Shown here piece after piece: positions 56-24,878 of a stretch of DNA of 32,000 nucleotides; position 1 is the stretch's first letter, and every line of letters starts with the position of its first letter. This DNA comes from Nostoc punctiforme PCC 73102 (GTDB lineage Bacteria > Cyanobacteriota > Cyanobacteriia > Cyanobacteriales > Nostocaceae). The notes under the pieces were generated by a model. The model had not been told where the DNA came from. It searched no databases and saw nothing but the letters and a program-made list of their open reading frames with translations. The position numbers and the translations under genes were made by a program. The stretch covers positions 8,160,001 to 8,192,000 of the forward strand of contig NC_010628.1 of assembly GCF_000020025.1 (NCBI RefSeq), given 5' to 3'.

Positions 56-3000
56 TCAGGAAACACTTGCAACTTGTAAATACTTCCCAGGTCGCTCGGT
101 ATCGGGGATATACCAGGCGGGGTTGCCTTGAGGATCTCGTCCTAATTTGGCATTAGGTTGCGGAGGACGATTACGTAGGCTGTTATTGGTAACTTCGCTG
201 TTTGTTACTTCTATGGGCGGTGCAGACAAAAATCCAGCAGACTGCATTTCGGCAATACTTTCTTTAAAGGCTGCCATTACAAAAGCTAGATCGGCTTCGG
301 AATGAGCTGTTGTCAAAAAGCAAGGACGGTGATCCCAAGTATGCACTCCCTTATCCCGCAGTAAATAAAATAGTAAGTCTCCATAAGGAAACTCTGGTGC
401 AGATTTCACAATAAACAGGGAGCCGAAGTTATAAGCTGTAAACGGAGCCTGAACTTTCTGGAAATAGCCCATAAGTTCCGCTACAAACTTATCAGTTCTG
501 GCATTGAGATTTTGCTGCAAGCTGGGGCCACTCTGTTTTAAATGTTGAAGTACTGCTTTGGCGGCTGCTAGTGCTAAAGGATGACGGACAAAAGTGCCGG
601 CAAAGTAAGTCACGCCAACTTCTGGAACTGAGTCATCCCCAAACTGCCAAAATCCACCATCTAAAGCATCCATATATTGCGATTTTCCAGCAATGACTCC
701 AATCGGTAGTCCACCGCCCACAATCTTGCCGTAGGTTGCTATATCAGCTTTGATACCAAAATGTGCCTGAGCGCCACCTGGATGAATTCTAAATCCGGTA
801 ACGATTTCATCAAAAATTAGAGCAATACCAGCTTCTTCCGTGAAATCACGCAATTGCTGAAGGAATTCCTTGGGCTGGTATTCAGGGCGACGGCTTTGCA
901 CAGATTCAACCATCACTGCTGCTAACTCATCAGCCCGGCTTCTAAGGATTTCTAGAGACTCAGGTGAATCGTAGTCCACCACCAAAATGTTCTCTACCAT
1001 TTCCGGTGGAATACCGGGAGCAGCAGGAATTGACCGGAGTTTTTTTGTCCCCCGAACAATTACTTCATCCAAAATACCGTGATAAGCTCCAGAAAAGATG
1101 GCGATTAAGTTACGCCCTGTGATGGTGCGTGCCATCCGCATCGCCCCCAAAACCGCTTCCGAACCTGTATTGCAAAAGGCTGCTCGGTCAAAGTTGGTCA
1201 ACTCACACATCAGCTTTGCCACTTCTCCAACTAAGGGAGTCTGCGGCCCAATTTCCATGCCTAGTTTCAGTTGCGCTTCAATTGCTTCGGTAATGAAAGG
1301 TGGCGACCAACCAAACAAATTCAAACCAAAGCCATTGCTTAAATCGACATATTCATTGCCATCAAGATCCCAAAGTTTAGAACCCGATGAACGAGACGCT
1401 ACGATGGGATAAACCATCTCTTTCATCGTCGGGTTAAAACCAGAAACAGTTCTTGGATCTGCCAAATAAGGGCGATGAGATTGAGTATATTCTTTGGATT
1501 TTTTAGTCCGTTGTGTGTATCTTTGAATAATTTTGTCTAGATGAGTGCGTTGTTGCGTTGTCAGAGTCTTAGTCTGGGTTTTTTCAATTCGAGCAGCCGC
1601 ACCAAATGCCTTTTTAGCGCCATTTGATTCCGTGTCTACCGATGCAGGTGATTCTTTGCTGGTTTGAGTCGCTGGGATCGATACGGCATTTTGTGGTTTG
1701 ACACCATTATTTTGAGGTGTCGCCGCAGGTACAACTGGGATTGTTACAGCTTGACTGTTGTTACCCAATAGTGACAATTGCTGACTCATGATTTGTAGCT
1801 GCTGATTAATCACATTTTCGAAGAAACTGGATGCAGCAGGTTGGGGAGAAATCTGAGGTGCAGATCCATTTGTATGAACTTCATGCACTACCAAAGTGGG
1901 TGATGTGGTTGCAGGTGCTGGTAATGGTACTTCTGGAATGGGTTCTGCAACGGTTTCTGTTAATCCTAATGCAGATAAAGTCTCAGGAGACAAGGCTGGA
2001 TTGATAAAGTCAGCCAGTGTTCCTAAATTGGGGTAAATTTCTAGTAACTGCCTAAGTGTTACTTTTACTTGAAATTTTTTCTTTAACGCTAGCCCCACTT
2101 GAGTCAGTGATAAAGAATCTAATCCCATTTCTAAAAATGTTGTCGAATCGTCAACACTAGCGATTTCCAATCCTGATGTTTCTTCAATAATTTCTTTTAG
2201 CAGAGGAATAAGCTTTTGCTGAGGAGATTTTGTCATATCTTGGGTTTTTTCTAACTGGGGATTTAAAGGTTTGGGAGTTGCTGCGCGATTGGGATGAGGT
2301 AAAGGATCAATCCAGAAGCGTTGGCGTTCAAAGGGATAGGTAGGCAGAGAAATTCGTTGTCGCGTTTCCCTTTGATAGAAGTTGCTCCAGTCAATAGATA
2401 CTCCTGCTAGCCACAGTTGTCCTACTGCCTTGAGTAATGCTGTCCATTCGGCTTCGTTCTCGGCGTTATCACTCAGAGAAGCGATCGCTATCTGTTGTTT
2501 AATATCTTTTGCTTGTTGGCGGGCTAAGGTCGTAGTTGTGATTCGCGGCCCAACTTCTAACAGTACGCGTTCTGGTTGCTGCCATAAGGTTTGTATACCC
2601 TCCGCAAATCGCACAGTCTGACGTAGATGTGTAGCCCAATACATCGGATCAGTTGCTTGCTGGGCTGTAATCCAGTCGCCGGTAACTGTGGAAACAAAGG
2701 GAATTTGAGGAGGTGATAATTTAACTTTCCTAACAACCTCAGCAAAGGGGGCTATGATGTCATCCATCATTGGGGAATGGAAAGCATGGGAAGTGTGTAA
2801 AGGGCGACAGACAACTTCTTCGCTTTCTAGTTGTTTTTGCAGAGCCGCGATCGCCTCTGTTGGTCCAGAAACTACACACAGGGAAGGGGCGTTAATTGCT
2901 GCGATCGCTAATTCTGGAATCAATCGCGGCTCTACCTCTTGGGCTGGTAAGCGTACTGAGAGCATAGCCCCTTGTGGTAACTCCCACATGAAGCGACCAC

Positions 3001-4972
3001 GATTTGCAACCAACATCAGCGCATCTTCTAAGGTGAATACACCCGCAATACAGGCGGCGACAAATTCGCCAATGCTGTGACCAATCATCGCTTGGGGTTT
3101 GACTCCCCAACTTTGCCACAGTTGCGCTAAAGCGTATTCAATGACGAATAATGCTGGTTGAGTAAAGCAGGTTTGCTTTAGGGCGATCGCGGCAGTTTCG
3201 CGATCGCTTGGCGCGGGATATATAATTCTTCGTAAATCCCCGCCCAGTAATGGTTTAAGGATTTCTGCACATTCATCTACTACCTCCTGAAACACAGGTT
3301 CACGGTTGTAGAGATTCAGTCCCATATCCACATATTGCGACCCTTGTCCGGGGAACATGAAGGCAACGGCTAGATTACGGATTACTGTATGGCGGGTATT
3401 TATTTGATTGGGATCTAAAGATTGCAGGGCTGCGATCGCATCTGTGATGTCGTGACAAACTACACTGCGTCGATAATTTAAGGCTTTGCGTCCTCGCTGT
3501 AGGGTATAAGCTACATCGGCTAAGTTAATTTCAGCATTGTACTGAAGATATTGCTGCAAATTTGCTGTTGCAGCTTCTAAGGCTGTGCTAGTTTTTGCCG
3601 AGAGCAACAATAGCTGCTGTGGACGAGAAGATCCTGAATTTTGAATTTGTGGCGCTTCTTCCAGCACAATATGAGCATTAGTCCCGCCGACACCAAAAGA
3701 ACTTACACCGGCTCGTCGCGGAGTTTCACCTTGTGACCATTCAGCTAGTTTGGTATTTACATAGAAGGGGCTGTTGGCAAAGTCAATCTTGGGGTTAGGA
3801 GCCTCAAAATTTAAGCTAGGTGGAATTTTTTTATAATGCAGGGCCAGAACGGTTTTAATTAATCCTGCTACCCCAGCAGCCGCAACTAAATGTCCGACAT
3901 TGCTTTTCAGAGAGCCGATCGCACAAAATTGTTTAGCATCTGTATGCACACGAAATGCTTGCGTCAGCGCTTCAATTTCAATGGGGTCGCCTAAAGGTGT
4001 TGCTGTACCGTGAGCTTCAATATAAGAGATAGTTTCTGGGTGGAAGTTGGCATAAGCTTGCGCCATTGCAATGGCTTCTGCTTGTCCATCTACGCTGGGT
4101 GCTGTAAAGCTTACTTTATCAGCACCGTCATTATTAATACCTGAACCACGAATTACGGCATAGATGCGATCGCCTTCATTGAGTGCATCTTCTAAACGCT
4201 TGAGGACAACTATTCCTGCGCCATTGTTGAACATTGTGCCCTGAGCGCTGGCATCAAAGGGACGACAATGACCATCGCCAGACAGCATACTGCCTTCTTG
4301 AGCTATATAACCGCTATTTTGGGGTGTAGTCATAGATACACCACCAGCTAAAGCCATATCGCACTGATAGCTACTTAAGGCTTGACAAGCTTGAATAATT
4401 GCTACCAAAGAAGTAGAGCAAGCCGTATTAACACTGACAGCCGGGCCTTTAAGGTTGAGCTTGTAAGCAGCACGGGTGGTTAAAAAGTCTTTTTCATTTG
4501 CTAACATGGTCTGGAACTCGCCGATGCGATCAACAATTTCCATACGTCCAGAAATATGGTTGGCAAAATAAGTATTTTGACCACAACCAGCGTATAAACC
4601 AATCAAACCATCGAAAGATTCTGATTCATAACCAGCATTTTCTAGAGCTTCATAAACCAACTCTAGAAAAACTCTGGCTTGTGGGTCCATAACCACAGCT
4701 TCCATTGGATTAATGCCAAAAAAGGCAGCATCAAAAGTTTCTCCCCCAGGAATGATTCCTCTAGCTTTTACATAACTGGGATCTTTGCAAAGGTTCGGGT
4801 CAATGCTGGGATCTAATTCTTCATCTTGAAAAAAAGTCGTTGACTCTAATCCCTCACACAGATTGCGCCAAAACTCATCAACATTGCCAGCGCCAGGAAA
4901 TCTTCCTACCATGCCGATAATGGCAACACCATCAATAGGATCTTGATTATCTGAGGTTTGCATATTTACCAT
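56..4972 (-). CDS. Type I polyketide synthase module KS-AT-ACP with a C-terminal class-III PLP aminotransferase (AMT) domain
   Basis: 1638-aa ORF. KS motifs: NTACSTS (Cys), EAHGTATPLGDP, NVGHL. AT has GHSIGE plus an HAFH (malonyl-type) motif. ACP has GLDSLS. The last ~450 aa are a GSA-aminotransferase-like fold with YGKIVGGG (PLP lysine). No KR, DH or ER. The ATG lies 3 nt after the stop of the upstream A-PCP gene. Approximate domain positions: KS 3650-4935, AT 2450-3340, ACP 1970-2200, AMT 200-1480. Confidence 0.9.
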   Translation of the reverse strand: MVNMQTSDNQDPIDGVAIIGMVGRFPGAGNVDEFWRNLCEGLESTTFFQDEELDPSIDPNLCKDPSYVKARGIIPGGETFDAAFFGINPMEAVVMDPQARVFLELVYEALENAGYESESFDGLIGLYAGCGQNTYFANHISGRMEIVDRIGEFQTMLANEKDFLTTRAAYKLNLKGPAVSVNTACSTSLVAIIQACQALSSYQCDMALAGGVSMTTPQNSGYIAQEGSMLSGDGHCRPFDASAQGTMFNNGAGIVVLKRLEDALNEGDRIYAVIRGSGINNDGADKVSFTAPSVDGQAEAIAMAQAYANFHPETISYIEAHGTATPLGDPIEIEALTQAFRVHTDAKQFCAIGSLKSNVGHLVAAAGVAGLIKTVLALHYKKIPPSLNFEAPNPKIDFANSPFYVNTKLAEWSQGETPRRAGVSSFGVGGTNAHIVLEEAPQIQNSGSSRPQQLLLLSAKTSTALEAATANLQQYLQYNAEINLADVAYTLQRGRKALNYRRSVVCHDITDAIAALQSLDPNQINTRHTVIRNLAVAFMFPGQGSQYVDMGLNLYNREPVFQEVVDECAEILKPLLGGDLRRIIYPAPSDRETAAIALKQTCFTQPALFVIEYALAQLWQSWGVKPQAMIGHSIGEFVAACIAGVFTLEDALMLVANRGRFMWELPQGAMLSVRLPAQEVEPRLIPELAIAAINAPSLCVVSGPTEAIAALQKQLESEEVVCRPLHTSHAFHSPMMDDIIAPFAEVVRKVKLSPPQIPFVSTVTGDWITAQQATDPMYWATHLRQTVRFAEGIQTLWQQPERVLLEVGPRITTTTLARQQAKDIKQQIAIASLSDNAENEAEWTALLKAVGQLWLAGVSIDWSNFYQRETRQRISLPTYPFERQRFWIDPLPHPNRAATPKPLNPQLEKTQDMTKSPQQKLIPLLKEIIEETSGLEIASVDDSTTFLEMGLDSLSLTQVGLALKKKFQVKVTLRQLLEIYPNLGTLADFINPALSPETLSALGLTETVAEPIPEVPLPAPATTSPTLVVHEVHTNGSAPQISPQPAASSFFENVINQQLQIMSQQLSLLGNNSQAVTIPVVPAATPQNNGVKPQNAVSIPATQTSKESPASVDTESNGAKKAFGAAARIEKTQTKTLTTQQRTHLDKIIQRYTQRTKKSKEYTQSHRPYLADPRTVSGFNPTMKEMVYPIVASRSSGSKLWDLDGNEYVDLSNGFGLNLFGWSPPFITEAIEAQLKLGMEIGPQTPLVGEVAKLMCELTNFDRAAFCNTGSEAVLGAMRMARTITGRNLIAIFSGAYHGILDEVIVRGTKKLRSIPAAPGIPPEMVENILVVDYDSPESLEILRSRADELAAVMVESVQSRRPEYQPKEFLQQLRDFTEEAGIALIFDEIVTGFRIHPGGAQAHFGIKADIATYGKIVGGGLPIGVIAGKSQYMDALDGGFWQFGDDSVPEVGVTYFAGTFVRHPLALAAAKAVLQHLKQSGPSLQQNLNARTDKFVAELMGYFQKVQAPFTAYNFGSLFIVKSAPEFPYGDLLFYLLRDKGVHTWDHRPCFLTTAHSEADLAFVMAAFKESIAEMQSAGFLSAPPIEVTNSEVTNNSLRNRPPQPNAKLGRDPQGNPAWYIPDTERPGKYLQVASVS

Positions 4973-4975
4973 TGC

Positions 4976-7006
4976 TTAAACACCTTGTTGATGATTACGG
5001 CGACGAGCTTGAGCTGCTTGTTGGCGTTGAGCGCGATTTTGCAGTTTGTTATGAGATGGTTGGCTGTTCTGGTTTGAATCCAAATATTTTGCTAAAGAGC
5101 CAATCGTTGAATACTGAAATAGCTTCACAGCAGGTAATTCAATACTAAGTTCCTGTTTGACTCGTGCAGCAACTTGCAGAATTGAGATTGAAGTTCCTCC
5201 CAAATCAAAGAAATTATCATCAATCCCAACGCGATCGATTTTGAGCAGTTCAGACAAAATACCTGCAAGCAAACGTTCTAAATCAGTTTGGGGAGCAATG
5301 TACGCTTGTTCGAGTTGCGGACGTTCTCTACTTGGTGCTGGCAATTTATGTCTATCTACTTTGCCATTTGCGGTTAGAGGCAGTGATTCTAACATTACAA
5401 ATGCTGATGGCACCATGTAATGAGGTAGGTGCTGCTGTAAAAAGCTACGTAAATTATTGTGTGTATATCTACTGTTATAGTGAGGAACAATATAAGCAGT
5501 CAACTGCTTTTCACCTGTTTCATCCTGACGAGCTAAAACAACAATTTCCCGAACATCAGGATGTTGTGCAATCTCCCGCTCAATTTCCCCTAGTTCAATT
5601 CGGAAACCGCGAATTTTTACCTGATTGTCAATCCGACCTAAGAACTCGATATTGCCATCTGGCAGATAACGAGCCAAATCTCCAGTTTTGTAAAGGCGGG
5701 TTGCTAAATTGCTATCAAATGAGTGAGAAATAAATTTTTCGGCAGTCAATTCTGGACGATTCAAATATCCTCTAGCTAATCCATCTCCAGCAATGTGCAA
5801 TTCGCCAATTTCTCCAATTGCTACTGTTTGGAAGTTGTTGTCTAATATATAAACTTGGGTATTAGCAATTGGGCGACCAATAGGAATAGATACACCTGGT
5901 TGCACTGGAGCTGTTATAAGATGGCAGCAGGTAAAAGTTGTATTCTCAGTTGGCCCATAACCATTAATTAGCCGACAGTTCTCTACTGTTTGGAGAAACT
6001 TCTGTACATGGGGAACAGATAAGACATCACCACCCGCTAAAAGTTGACGCAAAGATTTTAACGCATCAATTTTTTCATCCACTATGAGATGGAATAAGCC
6101 GGCTGTCAGCCAAAGAGTAGTGACTTGATATTGTTGAATAATCTGCCCTAATTCTTCTAATGATGGTGTATGAGGAGGGCAAATTACTAGTTGCCCACCG
6201 TTAAGTAAGCAACCCCAAATTTCAAAAGTTGAAGCATCGAAGGAAATAGGAGCAAGTTGCAGAATTATTTCTTCAGCAGTGAGGTGAGCATAATTAGTTT
6301 CTTTGACCAGCCTAACTACACCACGATGGATAACGCTAACCCCTTTGGGTGTACCTGTAGAACCTGATGTATACATGACATAAGCCAAGTTTTCAGCAGT
6401 GACGTTAGTGCTTAGGTTCTCTTTTTTATTTTGGGCGATTGTATGCCAATCTGCATCTAGGCAAATTACAAATGCTGTATGAGTAGGTAATTTAGCAACT
6501 AGGTCTTTTTGAGTTAATAGTATAGATACCTGAGTATCTAATAGCATAAAAGCTAAACGTTCTCGTGGATACCCTGGATCTAGCGGTACATAAGCTCCAC
6601 CTGCTTTGAGGATAGCTAAAAGTGCTACAACCATTTCTAAGGAGCGCTCTATGCAGATACCTACAAGAGTTTCTGCTTTTATACCTAGTGTTTGTAGATA
6701 TTGTGCCAGTTGATTAGCACGACTATTCAAATCTCTATAGGTGAGATGCTGATTATTAAATATTAATGCTACAGCATCAGGTGTTTTCTCAACCTGTGCT
6801 TCAAACAACTGATGAATACACGCTTGCTGAGGATAATCCGTTTGAGTCTTATTCCACTTGGTCAGTAGGTCTTTTTCGGATTCTTTCAAGATAGGTAATG
6901 TTAAATTATATCGTTCTAAGTTATTATCTGATGATAATGATGTTTGAGACTCAGTTACCAGAAATTGATTTTTATTTTTAGCTAATGAATCAGTTATTAC
7001 TTTCAT
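4976..7006 (-). CDS. NRPS loading protein: adenylation domain plus peptidyl carrier domain (A-PCP), with a Val-like specificity code
   Basis: 676-aa ORF. A-domain cores: LTYRDLN, YTSGSTGTPKG, FDAS, NGYGPTE, GELHIAGDGLARGY, YKTGDLARY, GRIDNQVKIRGFRIE, NGKVDR. Carrier motif: FFDLGGTSI. There is no condensation domain, so this is a starter module. Confidence 0.9.
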   Translation of the reverse strand: MKVITDSLAKNKNQFLVTESQTSLSSDNNLERYNLTLPILKESEKDLLTKWNKTQTDYPQQACIHQLFEAQVEKTPDAVALIFNNQHLTYRDLNSRANQLAQYLQTLGIKAETLVGICIERSLEMVVALLAILKAGGAYVPLDPGYPRERLAFMLLDTQVSILLTQKDLVAKLPTHTAFVICLDADWHTIAQNKKENLSTNVTAENLAYVMYTSGSTGTPKGVSVIHRGVVRLVKETNYAHLTAEEIILQLAPISFDASTFEIWGCLLNGGQLVICPPHTPSLEELGQIIQQYQVTTLWLTAGLFHLIVDEKIDALKSLRQLLAGGDVLSVPHVQKFLQTVENCRLINGYGPTENTTFTCCHLITAPVQPGVSIPIGRPIANTQVYILDNNFQTVAIGEIGELHIAGDGLARGYLNRPELTAEKFISHSFDSNLATRLYKTGDLARYLPDGNIEFLGRIDNQVKIRGFRIELGEIEREIAQHPDVREIVVLARQDETGEKQLTAYIVPHYNSRYTHNNLRSFLQQHLPHYMVPSAFVMLESLPLTANGKVDRHKLPAPSRERPQLEQAYIAPQTDLERLLAGILSELLKIDRVGIDDNFFDLGGTSISILQVAARVKQELSIELPAVKLFQYSTIGSLAKYLDSNQNSQPSHNKLQNRAQRQQAAQARRRNHQQGV

Positions 7007-8044
7007 ATTTTATTTCCGCAAAAAATAAATCTTTTTGCAAAACTTGTAGTTTTTAAGTAGTGCTGCATTTTTAACTCAACAAATGTCAAGTTTAACGTTG
7101 CAGCTAATGTTACTACTAAACTATACAAAACCAGAATTATTACTGAGTGAAAAATACTAAAGTTTGTTCTAAAATTCATATTGAGAAATACTTTTCTATA
7201 GATATAGATTTTTGGATAAACCAGTAAACTATGTAAGTTGAGTACGATATTGTTTCGAGATAAATAAGTAACGATGAATTATGATGTCTGAAAACTAAAT
7301 ATAGCTCCAACACCACGCAAGGTTTGTTGAAGCACTAGTATTTTTAATTACATTTTTTAGTCATATTTTTAATTTTTAAATTATATTTCAAGACTAATTT
7401 GACAAGAAATCATGCCGCAATCCTATAATGTTTATATGAAAGGGCACTGACTCTTAGATTTAGTTTTTTTATTTTGACCTATTTCCTCAAAATCTGAGTT
7501 ATTTTCAATACATCTTCATTGAAAATTAAAACTTTAGAGGTGATTTGCAATGAGAGTATTAACTGTACGTTAGCTTATTTGAGAGGATAAGAAGAATCAA
7601 TGCCTTGATGGGAAAGGAAGACAGCGATTTTACCAGCCGATAAGCAAGCAATGGAATCCGTTTGGAGATAGGTTGAACTCCAGGCTATGACCATCAAAAT
7701 TTTTTGTGCCCTAATTCTACTTATTAATACTTAATACTTTCAATATTTTATAGTATAAAACAGTTAGGACTTATACAATTGGCATAAATCTTTGCAAGGC
7801 ATTAGTCGGTTGTAGGGGCGTATAGATGTACGTTCCTCTCTAAGTATTTGTATCATGTATATTGTAAAATATTAAGCTGTTCTACATTTAACTTGGATGA
7901 TTAGGGCGGGTATAACTAGAACAGCTTTAAGAATCACAGGATAAAACAGGATATCAAAGGCGAGGGAGTATTACTCCCCCGCAATAGCCAACTTACTACA
8001 GCTTAATTGTTGAATTTAAAGCTGTAATCGTAATCATCTTTAGG

Positions 8045-8806
8045 TTAAATTACACTAGCTGAGAAAACGAAGTCATTTGCTGTTAGGCTAGTCGATGTAA
8101 CTCCAACCAATGAAGCCAACTCTGTATTTCCGGCTTTCACCAAAGTATCGCTACCCTGTTGCAATAGAGTTAAGGCACTAAATTGAGTAACACCAATACC
8201 GCCCAGCCCGATTTTATCAATGCCAACTGCAAAATCAGTTACAATGTTCTTGCTAGTTGGCAGACTGGCGTTAGCAATCCAGAATTGGTCAGCACCAGTA
8301 CCACCAGTTAAGCGATTACCGCCCTGTTGACCAGCAAATAGCACATCATCACCATCGCCACCAAACAGCGAATCATTCACACTGGAGAAGAGTTTGTCAT
8401 CTCCAGAACCACCGTAGAGGCGGTTATTGCTACCGTTACTCTTGAGGGTATCGTTACCTGAGCCACCGAAAGACAGTTGACGCGAACCTTCAACTACTGT
8501 GAGAGTATCAGCACCTGCGCCTCCGAACAAATTATTACTACCATTGGCTTCCACTACGGTAACTTCGTCATTACCATTGCCACCATCAGCACTAGTGTTA
8601 CTAGCAGGGCTATTTACGCCAATAAAAACTTGATCGTTACCATCTCCTGTGGACACTGAAGAGCCACTGCCGACTAGTACCGTATCTTCACCGTTACCAG
8701 TCACGATTGTGTTACCTTTAGTACCTTCTACAAAGTCTGCGCCGTCACCTGCAAATAAGGTTTGATTTGGCTTGAGGGTGACATCATCACTATTAGTAGA
8801 ACCAAA
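8045..8806 (-). repeat. Shared RTX/C-terminal cassette, copy 1 (3' end of the AP/NPP-like gene)
   Basis: Nucleotide-level paralogue of 11122-11883. I counted about 15 mismatches by eye in the first ~320 nt. It is more diverged from 17913-18677. The similarity continues past the stop codon into 7995-8044. Confidence 0.9.
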
Positions 8807-10717
8807 TTGAAGGTCTAGTGTTGTTAGTCCAACAGTGCGACCATCAAACCCTGCGGCTGTGAAGTACTGAGTATTGCCTACACTTTGAGAATCCAGAACT
8901 GTTGCTTGACCATTAGTAGTTTTTTCTGAAATCAATACTTCTTTAGTAGAGGGAACTACATCCGGGCCTCCCACCAGTGCTTCTGTAATGGCACGACCTT
9001 TCAAATCGCCATTACTTGGAATATCTAACCCTAAAATACGAGCAAGTGTAGGCGTGACATCGGCATTACTGACGGGCGCATAGTCCACATAACCTTGTTT
9101 AAAGTCTGGGCCAATAGCTTCCATGTTATTAAAGGTATCACCTCGACCAAAGCTGCCATGCATCCCCTGCCCTTGCTGCAAAGTTGTATCAGCAATTTCT
9201 ACCTGAGCTTGAGGGTTGTTTGGGTTGCTTGGGTCGGTGCTAAAGGTTTTGAAGTTGATAACTATAGATGGAACTGGTGTTTTAGCATCACCTTTTAGCC
9301 CGATCGCACTTAATGGTAAAGCACCTGGGATGTCTCCATAAGCATCGTCTACAAAAATCCCACTGATGTAGTCTTTTTGTGAAAGCAAATCCACTACCTG
9401 TTTAGCAAAGTCAGCATTGCCATTGGGCAGATAAATCAGGTCAGATCCACCATTAGCAGCTACAACTATCTTTGTACCTGGGTCAAGTTGGCCATTAATT
9501 ACCTCACCTGTACCACCAATTACACCATTCCCAGAAATAGGACGTTGACCTTGTGTGGCATCAACAGTCGCATACTGGATCTGGTTGAGGTCTGGGGGAA
9601 GGGTTGTAGGGTTAGGATCGTATAAGGGTAGACCTAGATCGTGAGCCAAATCAATTGCAACAAAACCTGCTGGTAGAAATCCCGGATTTACACCCGCATA
9701 AGTTTGGGTGGCAGCATAACTTGTAGTTTTTGTGCCTTGGCTATCAATAGCTTGTTTGCTGATGGTAGAAAAACCGTGGTCAGAAGTAATAAAGACATCA
9801 GTAGTTTTGTCTAAGCCTGTGCTTTTGAGATAGTCAAGAAGTTGCTTTAAATTATCATCAGCATTTTTGACCCCAGCTTTGGAGGTAGGGCCATTAATAC
9901 CTGGTGTTAAGGTGTTTAAGCTATCACCTTGATTATGTTGACTACCATCGGGATCTCTTGACCAGTAAACCAATGCGAATGGTTTACCATCTTCTTGAAA
10001 CTTGGGTAAAATTACTTTGGTTGTGGCATCTGCAAAGTATTGTTGTTGAGCAACATTAGCATTGAGAGTCCCTGGAGTTGTATTGTTACCAGCTGGCTGG
10101 ACTCGCGGTGTCGGTTTTACATCTAAACCAGCAGCTTGTAAGCGGTTGACAATATCTGGATCGAGTGGAACAGCAGAAGGTGAACCAGCAGGTGTAGTCG
10201 GCGGCGTTGCACCATTCGTACTATCATCAATAATAATTGTATCGGGAGTAGGAATATTACCTGTAATACCACCTTCTCGGTTAACTTGGGTAACATCTTG
10301 GATGGCAACTGGGCCTAGTTTACCAACTGCTGCTGTGTTGAAACCCTGCGATCGCGCGTAAGCTAAGAGTGACTCTTCATCTAAAAAGTTGTTACCGGGG
10401 AATTTTTCATCAATATCCCCCAAAACCGCATCATTTTCGATGAATGGCGTGACACTACCATTGGCATTAGGGCTAGGAAAACCAGTGTAGATAGTGTTGC
10501 TAAAGTCACCTGTATCACCAAGATAATGCCCCGTGGCGATCGCAGAAGCGTTCGGTGTGGTAAATGTCGGAAACAGTGAATGACTATTAGCGAAACTAAC
10601 TCCCTGCTGACGGACACTATATAAAGTTGGGGTATCAATTGAGTTTACAGAACCGTTACGCAATCCATCTGCAACAAAAATAATGACATTTCTACCGTTG
10701 TCGTTTGTATCAGCCAT
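8045..10717 (-). CDS. Alkaline-phosphatase-superfamily (nucleotide pyrophosphatase/phosphodiesterase-like) enzyme with C-terminal RTX calcium-binding repeats
   Basis: 890-aa ORF. AP-superfamily metal and nucleophile motifs: [36 protein letters not shown]. No N-terminal signal peptide. The last 253 aa are GGxGxD-type nonapeptide repeats plus a conserved tail. An AAGGAA Shine-Dalgarno-like sequence lies ~8 nt upstream of the ATG. Confidence 0.8.
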
Positions 10718-10927: not shown

Positions 10928-10957
10928 ATGTTTAAGGAAAGTTATAAACAAGTTAAG
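10928..10957 (-). promoter_or_regulatory. Candidate Pho box (PhoB/SphR site): three 8-bp direct repeats in 11-bp phase
   Basis: The minus strand reads CTTAACTT-gtt-TATAACTT-tcc-TTAAACAT. Against the cyanobacterial consensus PyTTAAPyPy(T/A) the units score 8/8, 7/8 and 6/8. The site lies ~210-240 nt upstream of the ATG at 10717. Confidence 0.35.
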
Positions 10958-11121
10958 ATTTTGGACAAAAAGATTCCCGATTTCTTCAAGAAGTCGGGAA
11001 TCTAATCCTTTAGATAGAGAGCAAATCAAAATATGATTGCAATATCACTCTTTAGAGTTAGCAAAAGCGCTACAGCTTAATTCATTTTGAACATTGAATC
11101 TAAGCTGTAATCATTTTTCGG

Positions 11122-11883
11122 CTAAATGACACTAGCAGAAAAAACGAAATCATTTGCTGTGAGGCTAGTTGATGTAACTCCAACTAATGAAGCCAACTCT
11201 GTATTTCCGGCTTTCACCAAAGTATCGCTACCTTGTTGTAATAGAGTTAAGGCACTAAATTGAGTAACACCAATACCGCCCAGCCCGATTTTATCAATGC
11301 CAACTACAAAATCAGTCACAATGTTCTTGCTAGTTGGCAGATTGGCGTTAGCAATCCAGAATTGGTCAGCACCAGTACCACCAGTTAAGCGATTACCACC
11401 CTGTTGACCAGCAAATAGCACATCATCACCATCGCCACCAGACAAGGAATCATTGAAATTGGAGAAGAGTTTGTCATCGCCAGAACCACCGTAGAGACGG
11501 TTATTGCTACCGCCACTTCTGAGGGTGTCATTACCTGAGCCACCAAATAATGATTGACGAGAACCTTCAATTACAGTGAGGCTATCATCACCTGTACCGC
11601 CAAGTAAATTATTACTACCACTGGCTTCTACTACGGTAATAACATCATTACCATTGCCACCATCAGCACTGGTATTTTGAGCCGGGCCATTTTGACCAAT
11701 AAATATCTGATCGTTACCGTCTCCTGTGGATACTGAAGAGTCGCTGCCGGCTAGTACCGTGTCTTCACCGTTTCCGGTTTGGATTGTGTTCCCTTTAGTA
11801 CCCTCGACAAAATCTGCTCCGTCACCGGTGAATAGAGTTTGATTTGGTTGAACGGTAATATCATCGCTGGTAGTAGAGCCAAA
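11122..11883 (-). repeat. Shared RTX/C-terminal cassette, copy 2 (3' end of the 2068-aa gene)
   Basis: Same cassette as 8045-8806. It encodes FGST(N/T)SDD...[15 protein letters not shown]...QFWIANA(S/N)[11 protein letters not shown]...[11 protein letters not shown]. The 3' flank 11069-11121 is also similar to 7995-8044. Confidence 0.9.
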
Positions 11884-14800
11884 GTTAATTTCTTCAGTTT
11901 GAGGTTGACCTAAACCAGGAGCAAGGTTAAGGGGCTTCTCCAACTTCAGCAGTAGAATTTCATTGTTATCTATGACTGGATTTTGAGGATCATTTCCAGG
12001 ACGACCTGTAGAGAAGGGATAATTGTTGTCATTGGCTACCAAAATGGTATTTTTGTCAACAACTAAAACGTTTTCAATTGTGACAAATGGGAAGTCAAAG
12101 GTGGTTTTACCATCTCCATTCAGGTCGTTGGGGTCTTGGATGTTTAACAAGTCTGCAACTTCTTCTTTGGCTACATAACCATTAGAATCTGCTTTAGACA
12201 AGTCAATTTTGTAGATCCGCTTGAATTTAGCTGAGGCTCCTTGACCATTATCCCGTTCAATGACTAGGTACTCATTATCGTTAATGACTGCTAAATCGCC
12301 GATCGCATTTGCCGGATTATCCAATCTGTAGTACAGCTTTTTATCAGTGTACTTGTGGCTAGCTAAATCAAATTCGTTAATCCGCAAAGCACCAGGAGTA
12401 TCACCTTGAACTGTACCCTCTAGCAGCATATAGAGCTTGGTTTTGCTGGCGTTGATTGCTCCACCTTCAAAACCTTTTGAGCCACCCAAGTTAGCAAAGG
12501 CATCTCCTGAGAGAACATCTGGGTTTTGTGGCGATCGCACCACATTATACTGAGGATCGTCTCTGAGTTGATCTCGTACTTCATCGGCGATATCTGGGAA
12601 ATCTGAGAAGAGTGCATCTACCCCTAATTGATAGAACTGCTGAATTTCTAGCTCTAACTTGCCTTTGTAATCTGCTGCTAAATACTGATCTTCCGCACGG
12701 AAGGTATAGGGATGAACCTGTAAACCTGCGTTGTGAGCATCTTGAATTAAGGTTGAAGGAGGTAATGTTGTCTTGTCAGCATCATTAACTGCTCCATCCC
12801 CATTCACATCATCGGCTTTGCCATCGCCATTAGCATCAGTACCTTTGACGCTCACAATCATCCGCTTCCAAGGGCCAATGCCATCGGCATAAGTGGCAAC
12901 TTCAGCCAAGCCTTCTGGTGTTCGCAAGTCGCCATAAGTCCGAGTGTCACCACTGACTTTCAAATCATAAGGCTGACTTTCGATGATTTTGCCGTTGATA
13001 TCAATGTCACTGGCATCTAGCAATTGAACTAGGGGAATATCTACCCCAGCCGCAGGCATAATTACATCATGTAGTTCTTTGAGGTTGCTCACTTCAAAGG
13101 ACTGGATAAAGATGCGACTGGGGTCAGTAAAGTTATTTGCCTTCAGCGTATCAATTAGTAACTGGCTGATGTTTCTGTTTATTTTGTCTGTGGTGCCTAC
13201 ATAAGTAGCTTCATCTGCCGAATAGGTTGGATGCTTAGTTTCAGGATAGATGCCAATCTTTTTACCTGTATCGGCTTCTACTTGCTTAACCAAATCGATG
13301 ATTTCTGTGAGGGTAGGAATCTCAAATAGACCATCAAAGGACTGATCACGGAAAGGTAGACGTTCTTCGGCGCGTAAAGTCTTGATTTCAGCTAAAGTAA
13401 AGTCTTCTGCAAACCAACCTGTAATTGTGTTTCCATCTAAACTTACCGTTTTCTTGCGATCGGCAAACTCTGGATGCTTGTAAACATCTGTGGTTGTGTT
13501 GCTGAAATTGACAGTACCATCAGCGTTTAAAACTGCTAAAGCTGGCTCATGGCGAGCAATTAGCACACCATCTTTTGTAACTACCAAATCAGGCTCAATA
13601 AAGTCAGCGCCTCTTGCAATTGCTTGCTTATAAGACTCTAAGGTGTGTTCTGGACGATAACCACTTGCACCTCTGTGACCAATGACTTTAGGTGCTTCGC
13701 CATCTAAAGTTTTGAATCTGTCGGGTGTAGCAATGGGAGCCTCTAATAACTTACCACTGGCATCAAAATGCAACAGGTAAGGGCCAAACTCTTCTCCAAC
13801 CCAAATTGTCCCGTCTTTATCAAAGACGAATGACTCTACATCAAAGTCTGCACCAGTCAGTAATCTTCCAGTAGTTCCCTCATTCACAATTTGGAAAGGA
13901 ACTTTGTTGTTAGGGTCAGACAGTTGAATGTAATCTAAAACTTTAACGCTGCCGTCTCCATTTTCTGTTCCCTTAAAATTCGGGTCTAGACGATTGATTC
14001 GTAGCAGAAAATCTTCACTATTATCTTTGCTACCGTAACCGTTATCTGACAGGAAGTACAAAGAGTCGCTGTTAGCAAATTGAACACCGCTAAAGCCCTG
14101 TATTGGCTGTCCGGGGAAAGGCCCGGTTCTGCCATTCGCTGAAATGTCTGCACCGGAAACTGGCCCATCACTAAAGGTATCAGCAGGTAAAGAAGCAAAA
14201 CCAACTAACTCAACTTGGGGTACAGGTGTAGCAATTAATAGTTGACCACCCCGGCTGTGTTCACCATTGAGTACATTCAACTGGTTTAAATCTACATCAT
14301 TGAGTACACCGCTAGCTTGGACATCAAATAAGTAGGAACTGCGACCTAGTTGAGGATTAGAAGCGGCTTCGATAATACCAGAGCTTTCCCAAGAACCCAA
14401 GCCACTATTAAAGGCAGTACCTTGGGCATTCTGGTCTACTTCAAACAGAGGTTTGATGGTATCGGTAGCAATATCGTAAGACCAAACGCGATCATTACGT
14501 TGCTGGGCATCTATTATTTCTCCACCTAAACCTGCTGTATCTTCTTGGAGTAAGAGTTTGCCATTTTTATCAACAGTTACGTTGTCATAGCTTACTCCTG
14601 TATTTGGGCCACCAGTTAGTACCAATTCAAAGTTACTAATCTCTGCTGTTGGGTCACTTGCATTCAGGCTGAAGCGATAAGCTTTACCGTAAGGATTTTC
14701 AAAAGTGCCATTAGCCAGTTGATCCTCTGTTCCAGTGGTAACAAAGTAGAAAGTACCTGGATTGTTTGGGTCTTCCGTTATATCTTCCAGACGACGGAAG

Positions 14801-17328
14801 TTTGTAGAACGCAACACTCCATTGTCGCTACCATTTACCCAATCGCTGAGAGGTTTACCAGCATTGAGTAGCTGGTCGTCTCCACGGTCTTCTGTACCTT
14901 TGGTATCATAAACAGCCGAGCGATCGACCTTAGTCCAAGTAGCTTTTACTTTTGTACCTTCTGCTAAGGTTTCATTGTCATATCCTGTCACCTTGAGGAC
15001 GTACAAATCTCCGTCTTTCAGGCCATTCGGGTCTTCTGCTGTTTGATTACCGACGAACATATATAGTTCGCCATCACCATTGTCTTCGGTTGATAGTAGA
15101 ACTGTTTTACCTGAATTGGTGGCGCGATACTGAGATGCTGCTAGTACGTTTTCTTTGGAGAAGCGACCTAAACCATCTATAGATTGAGCAGTACCATCAG
15201 TTGTGACGGACCAACCCAAACTATCACTATTCTGCTCATCGGCGGTAAAGAATATTGGCCCACCTTCAAAACCATAAGTTGCTAAGTATGCTGAACAGAA
15301 TCGACCAAAGTTAATACCTGTTTGGGTTACAGCATCAGATGTAACTGTAATCTTGCCTAATTCATTACCTTTACTATCAACCGCATTCTCTATTAGGTCT
15401 TTACCACCTACTAGCTTCCAGTTCTTATCAAATTGCAATAGCGAAATTCTACCGCCTGTAATTTGTCCAGAAATTGTGCTGGAAAAATCTGTTTTAGTAG
15501 TGTCGCTCAATTCATGGTTGACGAATACATAGTAAGCATCGTCAGTCTCATAAATGCCCAAACCGTCAGGGATGCCTGTAAAAGCATACTTTTCAGTACC
15601 ACTGGGGACAAAGGAACCAAATTCTCCCTGTAGCAATGGGATTTCATCTCCAACTGTCAGGAGTTGATTCAGTCTGTAATTTGACCCATCGAGTGCTTTA
15701 ACATAAGCGGGATCGGTCGTTCTACCATCTTGAACAGGCTTTTGAGCAATTTGGGGAATTGCGGCTAAAAGTTGTCCACCTTCTGCATGGTTGCCGTTGA
15801 GAATATTCTGGTCTGGCGCACCTGCTACATTATTTTTGACGGTGTGAGCCTGTACATCAAACAAGTAAGCACCGCTACCTGGTAATGATTCGGAAGGAAT
15901 TTCGATAATGCCAGAACTTTCCCACTGCCCTTTGGCATTTGGGTCGTTGTATACAGTACCAGCAGCATCTTCATTCAAAGCAAACACACGAGCGATCGCT
16001 TTGGTAGTGGGGTCGAAAGACCAAACAGAAGCTTCCCGGTTTTCTGCTGCCATTACGTCGCCACCGTAGGAGGTTTGATCCTCTTGAAGCAAGATTTTGC
16101 CAGATTTATCAACTGTGATGTTGTCATAGCTGACACCTTTACCAGGCCCACCCGTTAACAACAGTTCAAAGTCACTGATTCCGGCTGTGGGGTCGGAGGT
16201 ATTTAATTTAAAGCGGTAGAGTCTGCCATAAGGGTCTTCTGCTTCGGCAGGATTATCGGTTGCTCCGGCTGCTGTCCCCTGACCTTGTTTATTTTTAGTG
16301 CCTGTGGTGACGAAATAGAAAGTTCCTGGATTATTTTGATCTTCGGCAAAATCTTCAATGCGCTGGAAGCTGGTTGAATTGTTGGCAGAATTAACGAAGG
16401 CTGTGAGATCGCTACCATCTACTTTTGGTGTACCGTCTGCATTGAAGATGATTGATTTATCAACCTTTGTCCAGGTTGCAGCTTTTTGGGTGCCTTCGCT
16501 AACTTGACCCTCGAATTCTGCACCATTGACTTTCAGAACGTATAAATCTCCGTTATTAAAGCCATTGGGGTCATCTGCGGTTTGTTGACCAACCCATAAA
16601 TACAGTTCGCCGTCATCATTATCTTCTGATACAAACAGCACTGTTTGATCGGAGTTCTCTGCCCGATATTGAGAAGCTGCAACTACGTTCTCTTTTCTAT
16701 AGCGACCTAAGCCGTCAAGCGCCTGTGCTGTACCATCTGGGGTTACAGCCCAACCCCGACTTGTATCACCACCTTCTTCAGGAGCAAAGTAGACGGGAAC
16801 CTCTGTACCACTAGCATCTACGAAACCGGATTGGGCTAGGTAAGATGAGCAGAAGCGATCGAAAGGACTAATGGTTGCTCCACTGGCATTGGTGTATAAA
16901 CCAGTTTGAGTATTTAAGGTATAAGTGCCAGTTGAGTCTACTATGGTGTCAATCAGGTTTTTACCGCCGATGACCTTCCAATTTTCATCAAAAACAAACA
17001 GCGACACCCTCGCACCAGTGATTTTTTCACCAGGAAATGTGCTGGAAATATCTGTTGTGACAGAGCCGCCTAGCTCATGATTCAACCATACATAGTTGTA
17101 GGTTTTTCCAGCGATCGTTACTTGGGTAGCACCTGTGCCATCAGGAATACCAGTGAAGGCATATTTTTCGGTGGCATCAACTTGGGGGGCTTCATCGATG
17201 TCAAACGTGCTAGTTAACAGGGGTACTTCATCCCCTACAGTCAATAAAGGTACGATTATTCTATTGTCAGAGTTATTTACTGTATCGACGTAAGCCGATG
17301 CTGTTGTTCTTCCGTTCTCAATAGCCAT
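11122..17328 (-). CDS. Giant multidomain phosphoesterase: two tandem PhoX/DUF839-like beta-propeller units, a phytase-like esterase domain interrupted by a glycerophosphodiester phosphodiesterase (GDPD) domain, and C-terminal RTX repeats
   Basis: 2068-aa ORF. Residues ~1-530 and ~535-1010 are paralogous: [17 protein letters not shown](S/A)YLA, GLGR(Y/F)xKENV, EDNx[18 protein letters not shown]. The phytase-like N-half contains [13 protein letters not shown]...GQPIQGFSG...LSDNGYG. GDPD motif [19 protein letters not shown]...[18 protein letters not shown] lies at ~12575-13695. The phytase-like C-half follows, then the 253-aa RTX cassette. Assigning the two N-terminal units to PhoX is from memory of motif patterns and is the weakest part of this call. 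Confidence 0.75.
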
Positions 17329-17851
17329 AATTAGAATGTTTTTTGGTGGGTATTTGGATTTAGCTGCATCACAAGCTATTCAAGTTCTCTCAACTGCATT
17401 ACTTGTGGTAAAAAGCAATCATTTTCTCACTCTATTAACCGGAATTATGGGAATATTTCAGAATTACATTACAAAAATATTGTTCGGTTCAGTCGAAAAT
17501 TGCTATTAACTCCGAGTCTTTTTTCACAGTTATTGAAAGCTAGAGTAATGATGTTCAAATGTTAACTACTAATCTGTGTTAGCTAGTAAGAGTGTGCAAC
17601 TAAATTCCGAGTTTAAGTTGGTCGATAGTAGTTATGAGAGAACTTGACCATTATTAGAGATGTTTCCATTGAAAGATTAAGAAAAGAATAAGTTAAACGG
17701 AAGAGATGATTAAAATACATTTAAATAAAAAATAATTTTTATTCACCCTTGCTGTATAATTCTTTTTAAGAGTTTTAAAGAGATGAAAGTTAATTTTTTT
17801 AGTTTGAATTTGCTAGCGATCGCATCAACTTTGCTGTCCAATAAATAGGCT

Positions 17852-17912: not shown

Positions 17913-18677
17913 TTAAGCCACGATACTAGCCGAGAAAACGAAATCATTTGCTGTGAGGTTAGTTGATGTAATGCCAACTAATGAAGCCAATTCTGTATTT
18001 CCAGCTTTCACTAAGGTGTCACTACCCTGTTGTAATAGCGTTAAACCACTAAACTGAGTAATACCAATACCGCCCAGCCCGATTTTGTCAATTCCGGCTG
18101 TAAAATCAGTAATGATGTTCTTGCTAGATGGCAGACTGGCGTTAGCAATCCAGAATTGGTCTGCACCAGCACCACCACTGAGGCGATTGCTACCTCCTTG
18201 ACCAGCAAATAGCACATCATCACCATCGCCACCAAATAGCGAATCATTGGTATTAGAAAAGATTTTGTCATCTCCAGAACCACCATACAGACGGTTATTG
18301 CTGCCGTTACTGGTGAGGGTGTCGTTACCTAGACCACCAAATAATGATTGGCGAGAACCTTCAATGACTGTGAGAGTATCATTACCTTCCGCCCCAAACA
18401 AATTATTATTACCATTGGCTTCCACTACGGTAATAACATCATCACCATTGCCACCATCAGCACTGATATTTTGAGCAGCGCCGTTTTGACCAATTACAAT
18501 TTGATCGTTACCATCTCCGGCAGAGACTGAAGAGTTACTACCTACGAGTACAGTGTCATCATCATTCCCAGCCTGGATTGTATTACCTTCAGTGCCCTCG
18601 ACAAAATCTGCTCCGTCACCTGCAAAGAATGTTTTTCCTGGCTGAACTGTAATATTATCGCTGTTGCTAGAGCCGAA
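17913..18677 (-). repeat. Shared RTX/C-terminal cassette, copy 3 (3' end of the 1417-aa gene)
   Basis: Same cassette and same order of repeats, but visibly more diverged at the nucleotide level than copies 1 and 2. It ends ...[12 protein letters not shown]. Confidence 0.85.
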
Positions 18678-21600: not shown

Positions 21601-22166
21601 TGGCTTTTAGAGGAGAGGCGTAAAAGTGCCAGTTCCTCCTGAGAATACCAATCATTTGCCTGTGGCGTTGTGGGATCGTCGGGAAGCAAAGCATTGGGCA
21701 TATCCTTCCAGAGGAAGTTTTGGAAGGTGCGGATATTGGCGGTGTCAATGGGATATTTGGACAGCAGCAACATACCATATTGACCAGGGAAATCACCAAA
21801 TCCGAAGGCATCATCGCCATATCCCGATGTGCCTGGGGTTGTAACTACTGCGCTATTGTTGTTTAAGTCAAAGCCAGAGGCAATACCTGTGTTGGAGGGA
21901 GCGATATAGAAGTAGGGGTAGTCAACGGGAGTCGCACCGTTTTGACTTATGGCTAAATAATTTTGCTGGAATAGTTTAACTGCCTCTTGGGAGTAGTCAA
22001 ACTCATTAATTAGCAGCACATCCGGGTTGTTACGCTGGATAATTTCTGCAATAGCTTTTGCCTGAGCATTATTGGGGGTTGACAAATCGGCCGCTAATTG
22101 ACCTTGAGTACTGCGGTTTAGAGAAGCATTGAATTGGGAAAAGCGAATTGTATTATTAATTACCAT
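17913..22166 (-). CDS. Multidomain phosphoesterase: endonuclease/exonuclease/phosphatase (EEP) domain, phytase-like esterase domain, beta-propeller 3-phytase domain and C-terminal RTX repeats
   Basis: 1417-aa ORF. EEP motifs: [27 protein letters not shown] (~21010-22166). The phytase-like region contains GGLSGVTYD...YYAISDD. The beta-propeller phytase signature [11 protein letters not shown]...[12 protein letters not shown]...YNNIDL (~18700-19860) resembles Bacillus PhyC. A 254-aa RTX cassette ends the protein. No signal peptide. Confidence 0.8.
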
Positions 22167-22469: not shown

Positions 22470-22499
22470 AGATTAAGAAGTAGCTAGCAAAAAGTTAAG
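22470..22499 (-). promoter_or_regulatory. Candidate Pho-box half sites 22 bp apart
   Basis: The minus strand reads CTTAACTT-ttt-GCTAGCTA-ctt-CTTAATCT. The two outer units match PyTTAAPyPy(T/A) 8/8 and are spaced by two helical turns. The middle unit does not match. The site lies ~305-330 nt upstream of the ATG at 22166. Confidence 0.25.
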
Positions 22500-22830
22500 A
22501 TAAAAATAATTGTAGGGTTAGAGATGTTTTTTTCACAGCAATTATTCTCAGTTATATATCCCAATACGGTTGGGTTGAGCGTAAGCGTTACCCAAAAAAC
22601 CTTGATAATGTTGGGTTTCGTTCCTCAAACCAACCTACGTCTGATTATGTATATGTTTTTCTCTAATTAAGTTTCAAGTTGTTTGAAAATTGTTTCACTG
22701 TAACTTGAGGTGCTTTTAAATTCACCTTAACCACCATTAAATTTATCGGATAACTTAGAGAATTTAAAATTTTTGATACCAATAAGAGGACTTTTCAAAC
22801 ATCCTCTTAATGATAAATCTTTCACCCGAT

Positions 22831-22953: not shown

Positions 22954-23730
22954 TTAGCGGAAATTACCAGGTTTTAAGCGAACAGAGTTAGGCTGAGACT
23001 GGCGACGAACTGCTACTCCATTTCGCAAATTGTTTCCAGTACCACCATCTTGGCGATCGAGGAAAGGTTTTAGATTAATGCCACTTCTAGATGAACTAAT
23101 CCGATTATTGCCACTCCCTAAAAGTGTACGTCCTAAATTATATAATTCATTCCCTCCACTACTGCGATCGCCATAAGTGTTAACGGCTATAGTTTGCTGT
23201 CCGTTGTCAGCAGTAGTCAAGTTCTGAAAAATACTATTGCGGATTACAACAGGATCTTTTCCACGTGGTACTGTCAGCACAATTCTACAGGTTGGGTTAG
23301 CTTCTGTTGTGACGCAGACAATATTTTCGTTATTCTCTACAGATGTCTGGAGTTCTTGTAAGCCATCTGGACGATAAAGTTCTAAGCGACTGGCAATTGT
23401 TGCACAACGTCTTTGTGCATCCCAACCACCGCCCAAAGCCGCAGGTGCTGCCCAAGGAAAGAATTGTCCTGGTTGACTTTGTGGCTGATACATAACGGTA
23501 GACTGACCGTTGTAAGTCTGGCAGGTAAACCGAGTTGTACCGTCAGATGAGGGTGAAGGGGGTATACCTGTTGATGTGTCTATTGGGACTGATGAGCCAC
23601 CTGATGGGACTGTTGGCACTACTACACCGTCGCCAGTAGAGTCATATTGTGCCATTGCTACCGAATTGCCGAGACACAAAGAGAAACCCAGAATACCCAA
23701 AGACATAAATCGCAGTAGTTGTGATGACAT
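22954..23730 (-). CDS. Secreted COP23-domain (circadian oscillating protein 23-like) protein
   Basis: 258-aa ORF. Signal peptide MSSQLLRFMSLGILGFSLCLGNSVAMA, then a Pro/Ser/Gly-rich linker. The core has the COP23-like pattern F-x-C...G-x-x-T-V-M...F-x-W...W-x-x-x-x-R-C-x-x-I-(S/A)-x-R...I-V-C...C...L-T-V-P. The family assignment is recalled from memory, not searched. Confidence 0.6.
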   Translation of the reverse strand: MSSQLLRFMSLGILGFSLCLGNSVAMAQYDSTGDGVVVPTVPSGGSSVPIDTSTGIPPSPSSDGTTRFTCQTYNGQSTVMYQPQSQPGQFFPWAAPAALGGGWDAQRRCATIASRLELYRPDGLQELQTSVENNENIVCVTTEANPTCRIVLTVPRGKDPVVIRNSIFQNLTTADNGQQTIAVNTYGDRSSGGNELYNLGRTLLGSGNNRISSSRSGINLKPFLDRQDGGTGNNLRNGVAVRRQSQPNSVRLKPGNFR

Positions 23731-24844: not shown

Positions 24845-24878
24845 AGTAAAACCTTAGAGAAAGGCGAATAAATAAGAT

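Follow-up and report, generated by a model that had tools for sequence, protein, structure and literature searches.

A predicted RTX secretion module shared by three adjacent phosphoesterase genes of Nostoc punctiforme, with a probable gene-conversion tract at its 3′ end

A 32,000-nt stretch of Nostoc punctiforme PCC 73102 DNA (NC_010628.1, positions 8,160,001-8,192,000 of the forward strand; hereafter the window) carries three large, adjacent open reading frames (ORFs) on the minus strand, here called g1, g2 and g3, each of which ends in a copy of the same C-terminal module (Table 1). An earlier reading, made from the sequence only, had placed three collinear copies here, and they were found at exactly the coordinates it gave, all on the minus strand. 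A repeat finder returned a three-copy family at 8051-8350, 11128-11427 and 17922-18221, the other two copies being 96% and 87% identical to the reference one. In a three-way alignment the module extends without gaps from FGS(T/S)xSD to ANDFVFSAS(VI/IVA), and the single length difference is one codon at the g3 end. The 5′ boundary is abrupt. Counted in 30-nt windows, identity lies at chance level on the 5′ side of FGS(T/S)xSD and rises at this motif from ~33% to ~70% or more. The regions upstream of the module gave no mutual blastp match at E ≤ 1e-3, which bears out the claim that the catalytic parts of the three genes share no similarity. The genes had also been described as otherwise unrelated; this is correct for their sequences but not for their function, as all three encode multi-domain phosphoesterases and both g2 and g3 match Pfam Phytase-like.

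Over the whole module (759 nt), g1 and g2 are 87.5% identical, g1 and g3 81.0%, and g2 and g3 83.3%. For module nt 1-443 the corresponding values are 81.5%, 77.4% and 80.6%, and for nt 444-759 they are 95.9%, 86.1% and 87.0%. The description of the cassette as near-identical over ~760 nt, and the figure of ~95% for copies 1 and 2, consequently apply to the 3′-terminal ~316 nt of g1 and g2, the only pair and the only segment in which ~96% is reached; they do not hold for the whole module or for its first 443 nt. The similarity has a sharp boundary and goes beyond that of a generic domain at the ordinary protein level.

Searches with the isolated modules returned PF00353 (HemolysinCabind) in 4-5 stretches (E = 1.2e-16 and 6e-17). 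Copy 3 matched Pfam Peptidase_M10_C, the C-terminal domain of serralysins, and the NCBIfam RTX_toxin and serralysin models gave sub-threshold domain matches. A sequence search of the PDB led to the RTX blocks of CyaA, to serralysins and to a lipase, with an identity of only ~20-24%. An AlphaFold2 model built on 41 homologues (mean pLDDT 95.9, pTM 0.91) consists of a continuous beta-roll of short regular strands (residues ~8-180) followed by a small beta-sandwich cap (~187-249). Submitted to Foldseek, the model was matched with probability 1.0 to PML lipase, serralysin/PrtC, the RTX domain of CyaA and the AlgE R-modules, and RsaA was also among the matches; TM-scores were modest (0.3-0.5) because these targets contain other domains. 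About 75 residues lie C-terminal to the last RTX repeat and represent a candidate uncleaved signal region, and the N-terminal part of the module contains an extra ~90 residues of degenerate repeats. Inspection of the longest ORFs of g1, g2 and g3 revealed no N-terminal signal peptide and neither a hydrophobic nor a twin-arginine N-terminus.

In RTX proteins the repeats separate an uncleaved C-terminal secretion signal of ~60 residues from the protein body and hold the protein unfolded until extracellular Ca2+ is met; cyanobacteria are the group richest in such proteins, and phosphatases, phytases, nucleotidases and phosphodiesterases are among the RTX proteins that have been predicted (PMC3034196). 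The Pfam, PDB and AlphaFold2/Foldseek matches, the lack of an N-terminal signal and the agreement with this published architecture together identify the module, as modelled, as a predicted RTX secretion module (beta-roll plus C-terminal cap) of a well-known kind. By way of this module, the g1, g2 and g3 enzymes are most likely exported by one type I system, composed of an ATP-binding cassette (ABC) transporter, a membrane fusion protein (MFP) and TolC, and the module, a predicted Ca2+-binding beta-roll, would fold once it meets Ca2+ outside the cell. The proposal of a "secretion/anchoring module" thus stands with regard to secretion, given the RTX beta-roll and the candidate C-terminal signal region; nothing suggests an anchoring role.

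One genome per species was searched for the module, and 90 modules were extracted for comparison; the loci named here are labelled L001-L048 and L077. The search led to 48 Nostocaceae loci with a protein identity of 67-93%, and nearly all of them represent a syntenic g3-g2-g1 cluster. This cluster occurs in ~40 Nostoc loci and also on a complete 7.18-Mb chromosome (CP171148.1, L077); the closest relative is a Nostoc metagenome-assembled genome (L001) with ~92% nucleotide identity across 13.9 kb. The same three gene-module fusions, with identical boundary, are found in Nostoc, Calothrix, Anabaena and Cronbergia. In the window, every catalytic partner of the module is a phosphoesterase (NPP, PhoX, GDPD, phytase-like, beta-propeller phytase, EEP), and elsewhere the tail is attached to PhoA-GDPD (L010, L077), GDPD alone (L002) or a 5′-nucleotidase (L044).

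For codons 1-70, the nearest neighbour was of the module's own gene type for 85 of 89 modules. For codons 141-253 it belonged to another gene type in 23 of 89, and six of these 23 neighbours came from the same locus. Hence, the 5′ part is old and inherited with the gene, and the 3′ part is mosaic. Synonymous divergence (dS) between paralogues amounts to 0.70-0.79 in codons 0-140, a range of 0.5-1.4 being given for the 5′ ~440 nt, which matches the divergence expected after an old duplication. The module is an old domain common to these genes across Nostocaceae, and its 5′ ~440 nt evolves with the host gene. A different origin, in which the whole 760-nt cassette is a mobile unit recently pasted onto three unrelated genes, would agree with the sharp boundary at the FGS motif and with the additional partners seen elsewhere, such as PhoA and 5′-nucleotidase. 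It is highly improbable, given the paralogue dS of the 5′ 140 codons, the tracking of gene orthology by the 5′ part and the fusions shared, with their boundary, by four genera; in addition, the modules are not bordered by a transposase or by recombination sites. The idea that the module is always more diverged than its host gene was also considered. It is true for g1 (dS 0.27 in the host gene vs 0.42 in the module) and, in g3, for the 3′ part; as g2 shows the opposite (0.58 vs 0.45), it provides weak support.

Gene conversion or cassette exchange had been suggested for the entire ~760 nt. What emerged is a 3′ tract restricted to g1 and g2, with the 5′ ~440 nt being old. The comparison of synonymous with nonsynonymous divergence marks this tract, as g1/g2 dS drops from 0.70 in codons 0-140 to 0.17 in codons 140-250, where g1 and g2 are each at dS 0.41-0.48 from g3. 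A maximum chi-square analysis over variable sites located a breakpoint after module nt 443 (~8364 in g1, ~11441 in g2; permutation p = 0.0005), and the site patterns showing which pair agrees differ across this point (p = 1e-4 to 9e-4). The phylogenetic affinity changes at the same position. In codons 141-253 the g1 of the window has a distance of 0.056 to the g2 of the window and of 0.086 to the L001 orthologue of g1, while in the 5′ part of the module it is only 0.03-0.05 from the latter. Bootstrapped distance contrasts covered four g1 genes (window, L001, L008 and L011), and in 4/4 a g1-like affinity gave way to a g2-like one at nt ~443, with bootstrap values of 0.96-1.00 for nt 444-600.

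An assembly artefact was excluded, as the same allele is found in independent assemblies including the complete 7.18-Mb chromosome. Copy 3 showed no recent exchange in the window. A second candidate tract, between g2 and g3 at module nt ~150-330 (p = 0.019), was rejected because the g2 of the window is nearest to g2 orthologues there; the similarity of g2 and g3 in this segment is general and old.

Two types of 3′ end can be distinguished. Type A (762 nt, ending in SASV(I/V) and the stop) is followed by CCGAAAGATGATTACAGCTTAGATTCAAC...TTAAGCTGTAGCG and a G+C-rich terminator and constitutes the normal g2 end. Type B (765 nt, ending in SASVVA and the stop) is followed by TCTGTTCGCCTAG...GTTGAAACAGCGGTTTTCAATTACG and is present on g1 in 11 of 17 related g1 genes, including those of L037, L034 and L021. 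Type A, with hairpin and terminator, is found on g1 in the window, L001, L077, L008 and L011. In the g1 of the window, g2-type sequence continues for ~95 nt beyond the stop codon, through hairpin and terminator, after which synteny with the normal g1 flank returns; the type-B downstream sequence of g1 had no match in the window. The claim that g1/g2 similarity runs ~50 nt past the stop codon proved accurate (~52 nt), and so did the positions of the two inverted repeats, both of which fold as hairpins (Table 1). Inverted repeats of the form ACAGCTT...AAGCTGT occur twice in the window vs 0.02 expected by chance.

These findings bear on the possibility that no DNA was exchanged and that stronger purifying selection on the 3′ third of the module, which would contain the signal for a shared transporter, mimics the likeness of g1 and g2. 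As would be expected, each of the three pairs is better conserved in the 3′ half (nonsynonymous divergence, dN, of 0.02-0.08 in codons 140-250 vs 0.10-0.16 further 5′), which is also where the almost invariant positions of the family alignment are concentrated. However, the synonymous drop is specific to g1 and g2 and is not seen against g3 in the same codons, the test on relative site patterns is significant, the likeness extends into the non-coding hairpin and terminator, and most g1 orthologues elsewhere possess a different 3′ end. Selection alone is largely refuted by the synonymous-site and non-coding evidence, and we consider it a very unlikely explanation.

Module copies arranged as direct repeats 3-7 kb apart would recombine ectopically. 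In the lineage of the window, a non-reciprocal conversion from g2 to g1 would have overwritten the last ~316 nt of the g1 module, its stop codon and ~95 nt of the 3′ untranslated region (UTR), and similar 3′-end exchanges would recur in other genomes. We infer this mechanism, as well as the direction and timing of the conversion. The g1 tract of the window lies ~0.10 from the g2 genes of other genomes, and 0.149 and 0.124 from the type-A g1 genes of L008 and L011, respectively; the tract of the L011 g1 pairs with the L011 g2 at 0.091. The tract of the window is thus nearer to g2 genes than to the other g1 genes of type A, which indicates that g2 was the donor and that homogenisation was local and repeated. 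Both copies are present in the window, and g2 retains the end that is typical of g2 in 32 genomes.

The sequence-only reading had further predicted deletions mediated by the repeats, and these were observed. L006, L018 and L029 are without g1, the module of g2 (with a type-B end) running straight into the downstream flank of g1, so that the junction lies inside the module. In L029, positions 11060-14456 align to L034 13086-16480 at 91.4%, and L006 is nested in the tree among genomes that carry g1. Crossovers between modules would have deleted g1 in some genomes, and a crossover joining the module of g2 to that of g1 would produce just the arrangement seen.

The cyanobacterial SphR/PhoB Pho box consists of three direct 8-bp repeats, PyTTAAPyPy(T/A), with an 11-bp periodicity. 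The 32-kb window was scanned for three such repeats with ≤4 mismatches, and 8/8 matches were located upstream of g1, g2 or g3 (Table 1). The matches are enriched over shuffles of the same AT-rich upstream regions (P ≤ 0.007), and the repeats before g1 and g2 are kept in six other Nostoc loci. As Pho-box-like repeats precede all three genes, the g1-g2-g3 cluster is probably a Pho-regulon exoenzyme set that would be induced by phosphate starvation.

Altogether, we regard the module as an old RTX secretion tail of a phosphate-scavenging cluster, in which the 3′ end of g1 was converted by g2 and in which crossovers between modules deleted g1 elsewhere, and assign a probability of about 0.8 to this interpretation. 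Several observations weigh against it. Genes for ABC, MFP and TolC components of a type I system were found neither in the 32-kb window nor in the L077 flanks inspected. The intergenic regions in which the Pho-box consensus was matched are AT-rich, though the shuffles gave the P value stated above. The g1 of L039, the most divergent one, ends in weakly g2-like sequence, which leaves some doubt about the ancestral 3′ end of g1. The mean distance between g1 and g2 paralogues is 0.155 within vs 0.162 between genomes, and the within-genome value is the lower one in only about half of the genomes. Pervasive or ongoing concerted evolution was rejected for this reason; within-genome paralogues being barely closer than those of different genomes, exchange between modules is sporadic and not continuous.

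Two further points against the interpretation concern the origin of the converted allele. The terminator within the g1 tract is now absent after the g2 of the window, although it is present after g2 in other genomes; the immediate donor therefore may have been an older or an imported g2 allele, and inter-strain allelic replacement could have delivered the converted allele. In the tree of the g1 catalytic part, which is poorly resolved, the genes of type A do not form a single clade, L008 and L011 standing apart from the window and L001. In its full form, the replacement scenario would mean that the hybrid arose once elsewhere and that the g2-like 3′ end of g1 was imported from another Nostoc strain by homologous recombination, which would also account for the breakpoint at ~nt 443 common to 4/4 genes tested. 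We consider this unlikely. Each g2-type tract on g1 has its nearest neighbour in a g2 from the same genome or from a very close one and not in the other g2-type g1 tracts, the g1 catalytic tree is nearly star-like, so that non-monophyly is weak evidence, and the hybrid allele would still require an ectopic g2-to-g1 event at its origin.

The ACAGCTT...AAGCTGT palindrome is nearly exclusive to the 3′ UTRs of module genes; in 854 kb of Nostoc sequence, 29/32 sites are situated ≤80 nt past a module stop codon. The hairpin occurs in a g2 class and a g3 class which differ in their inner stems, with one compensatory change from an A-U to a C-G pair. No known RNA family in Rfam overlaps the modules or the hairpins. 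The placement of the hairpin, the compensatory pair and the concentration of exchange at the 3′ end speak in favour of a functional 3′ unit, made up of the last ~105 codons (the final RTX repeats, the cap and the predicted secretion signal) and the hairpin, that would be kept homogeneous by selection and not just by neutral ectopic recombination. We consider this unlikely. If true, homogeneity of this unit would ensure that all Pho-regulated exoenzymes fit one and the same type I secretion system, and the hairpin would serve a separate function, e.g. in mRNA 3′-end stabilisation, in processing or in coupling translation termination to export.

The cluster also varies outside the module. The N-terminal head of g2 differs among Nostoc genomes while the remaining gene is collinear (window 14215-17328 vs L034 5900-7668, L010, L077 and L002). 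It comprises two PhoX domains in the window, L001 and L037, is of the PhoA type in L010, L034 and L077, and is absent in L002 and L003. PhoX and PhoA phosphatases are generally reported with different metal cofactors. The g3 genes of the window and L001 lack a 1.2-kb in-frame segment found in most other genomes, which encodes a second Phytase-like domain (L034 3408-4604; L037 1939-3134); the junction is at window position ~18715, ~37 nt upstream of the module. In L077 (CP171148.1; 8629-10000), an insertion sequence with a DDE_Tnp_1 transposase resides inside g1 just upstream of the RTX module and splits the gene into a 591-aa catalytic ORF and a 296-aa ORF containing the module only.

Directly downstream of g1, a hybrid nonribosomal peptide synthetase/polyketide synthase pair (56-7006, minus strand) encodes a 676-aa adenylation-PCP protein and a 1638-aa KS-AT-PCP-aminotransferase protein; the pair is syntenic in L034, L037 and L077. 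At the other side of the cluster, a full-length match to the cyanobacterial small RNA PsrR1 (RF02701; 24061-24143, minus strand; 56.5 bits, E = 3e-8) sits between a COP23-family gene (22954-23730) and a compact Tn7-like element (24794-30358). This element encodes an 883-aa TnsB-type transposase with rve and Mu-transposase C-terminal domains, an AAA/TniB-like protein and TniQ. Terminal inverted repeats of 51 nt (TGTCACTTAAAGG...) enclose it at 24794-24844 and 30308-30358. Only 223 nt away, an inverted second copy begins and continues past the end of the window, the segments 28940-30358 and 30582-32000 (1419 nt) being 100% complementary. The inverted pair stems either from two insertions placed head to head, an unusual arrangement in view of the target immunity of Tn7-type elements, or from a fold-back in the assembly.

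Table 1. Genes, module copies, exchange tract, 3′ structures and Pho-box-like repeats at the locus (window coordinates)
Feature	Position	Strand	Description
g1	8045-10717	-	890 aa; NPP/alkaline-phosphatase superfamily (Pfam Phosphodiest) and C-terminal RTX module
g2	11122-17328	-	2068 aa; two PhoX, Phytase-like interrupted by GDPD, RTX module
g3	17913-22166	-	1417 aa; Exo_endo_phos, Phytase-like, beta-propeller Phytase, RTX module
Module copy 1 (g1)	8045-8806	-	253 codons and stop; starts FGSTNSDD
Module copy 2 (g2)	11122-11883	-	253 codons and stop
Module copy 3 (g3)	17913-18677	-	254 codons and stop; 81-83% nucleotide identity to copies 1 and 2
Probable converted (recipient) tract in g1	7950-8363	-	module nt 444-762, stop, ~95 nt of g2-type 3′ UTR
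Matching g2 segment (probable donor type)	11070-11440	-	coding part 95.9% identical to g1; similarity to ~+52 nt past stop
3′-UTR hairpin ACAGCTT...AAGCTGT	7998-8025	-	downstream of g1
3′-UTR hairpin ACAGCTT...AAGCTGT	11072-11108	-	downstream of g2
Terminator-like G+C-rich stem-loop GCGGGGGAGTAATACTCCCTCGC	7960-7982	-	in other genomes in g2-type downstream sequence, followed by a T run
Pho-box-like triple 8-mer repeat	10928-10957	-	precedes g1; conserved at six further Nostoc loci
Overlapping Pho-box-like repeats	17674-17736	-	upstream of g2
Pho-box-like repeats	22470-22521	-	upstream of g3
Pho-box-like repeats	22704-22744	+	upstream of g3

The locus offers a clean, phylogenetically documented case in which a secretion tail common to several enzymes serves as a substrate for recombination. 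The consequences are visible in the 3′ UTR and the part of the module next to the signal, which are locally homogenised, and in the loss of a whole gene by crossover in the tail, and catalytic heads (PhoX, PhoA or none) are freely swapped in front of the constant tail. At the same time, it defines a conserved Nostoc cluster of very large, predicted extracellular phosphoesterases which are probably Pho-regulated and probably exported by a type I system. This is of relevance for the acquisition of organic phosphorus in soil and in lichen symbioses; no general principle is changed.

Module and process are both of known kinds, with FrpA/FrpC as a close precedent, and no new mechanism is implied. 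With serralysin/PrtC/AprA, the Pseudomonas/Serratia LipA-PML lipases, block V of CyaA and the AlgE R-modules, the Nostoc module shares GGxGxDxUx nonapeptides, a parallel beta-roll and a C-terminal cap; judged by its architecture, it would also have an uncleaved C-terminal region behind an enzyme body that shows no Sec or Tat signal. It differs from these in its low sequence identity (~20-24%), in the ~90-residue stretch of degenerate repeats and in having no adjacent ABC/MFP genes, and its secretion is predicted. FrpA and FrpC of Neisseria meningitidis are likewise paralogues with unrelated N-terminal parts and a shared, near-identical RTX portion, and belong to an RTX family that is polymorphic through insertions and deletions (PMC3034196). 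They are iron-regulated and of unclear function, whereas the Nostoc partners are phosphoesterases with Pho-box-like promoters. In Nostoc, moreover, near-identity is limited to the last ~316 nt and the 3′ UTR, and there is phylogenetic documentation of the exchange.

Among bacterial paralogues, tufA/tufB in Salmonella exemplify ectopic gene conversion and concerted evolution. The Nostoc case resembles conversion of this type in its homogenised, probably non-reciprocal tract between dispersed direct repeats, the low dS, the discordance between tract and flanks and the associated deletions. In contrast to tufA/tufB, however, the Nostoc tract is of sub-domain size and reaches into the 3′ UTR, the remainder of the genes is non-homologous, and exchange is sporadic across lineages and not continuous.

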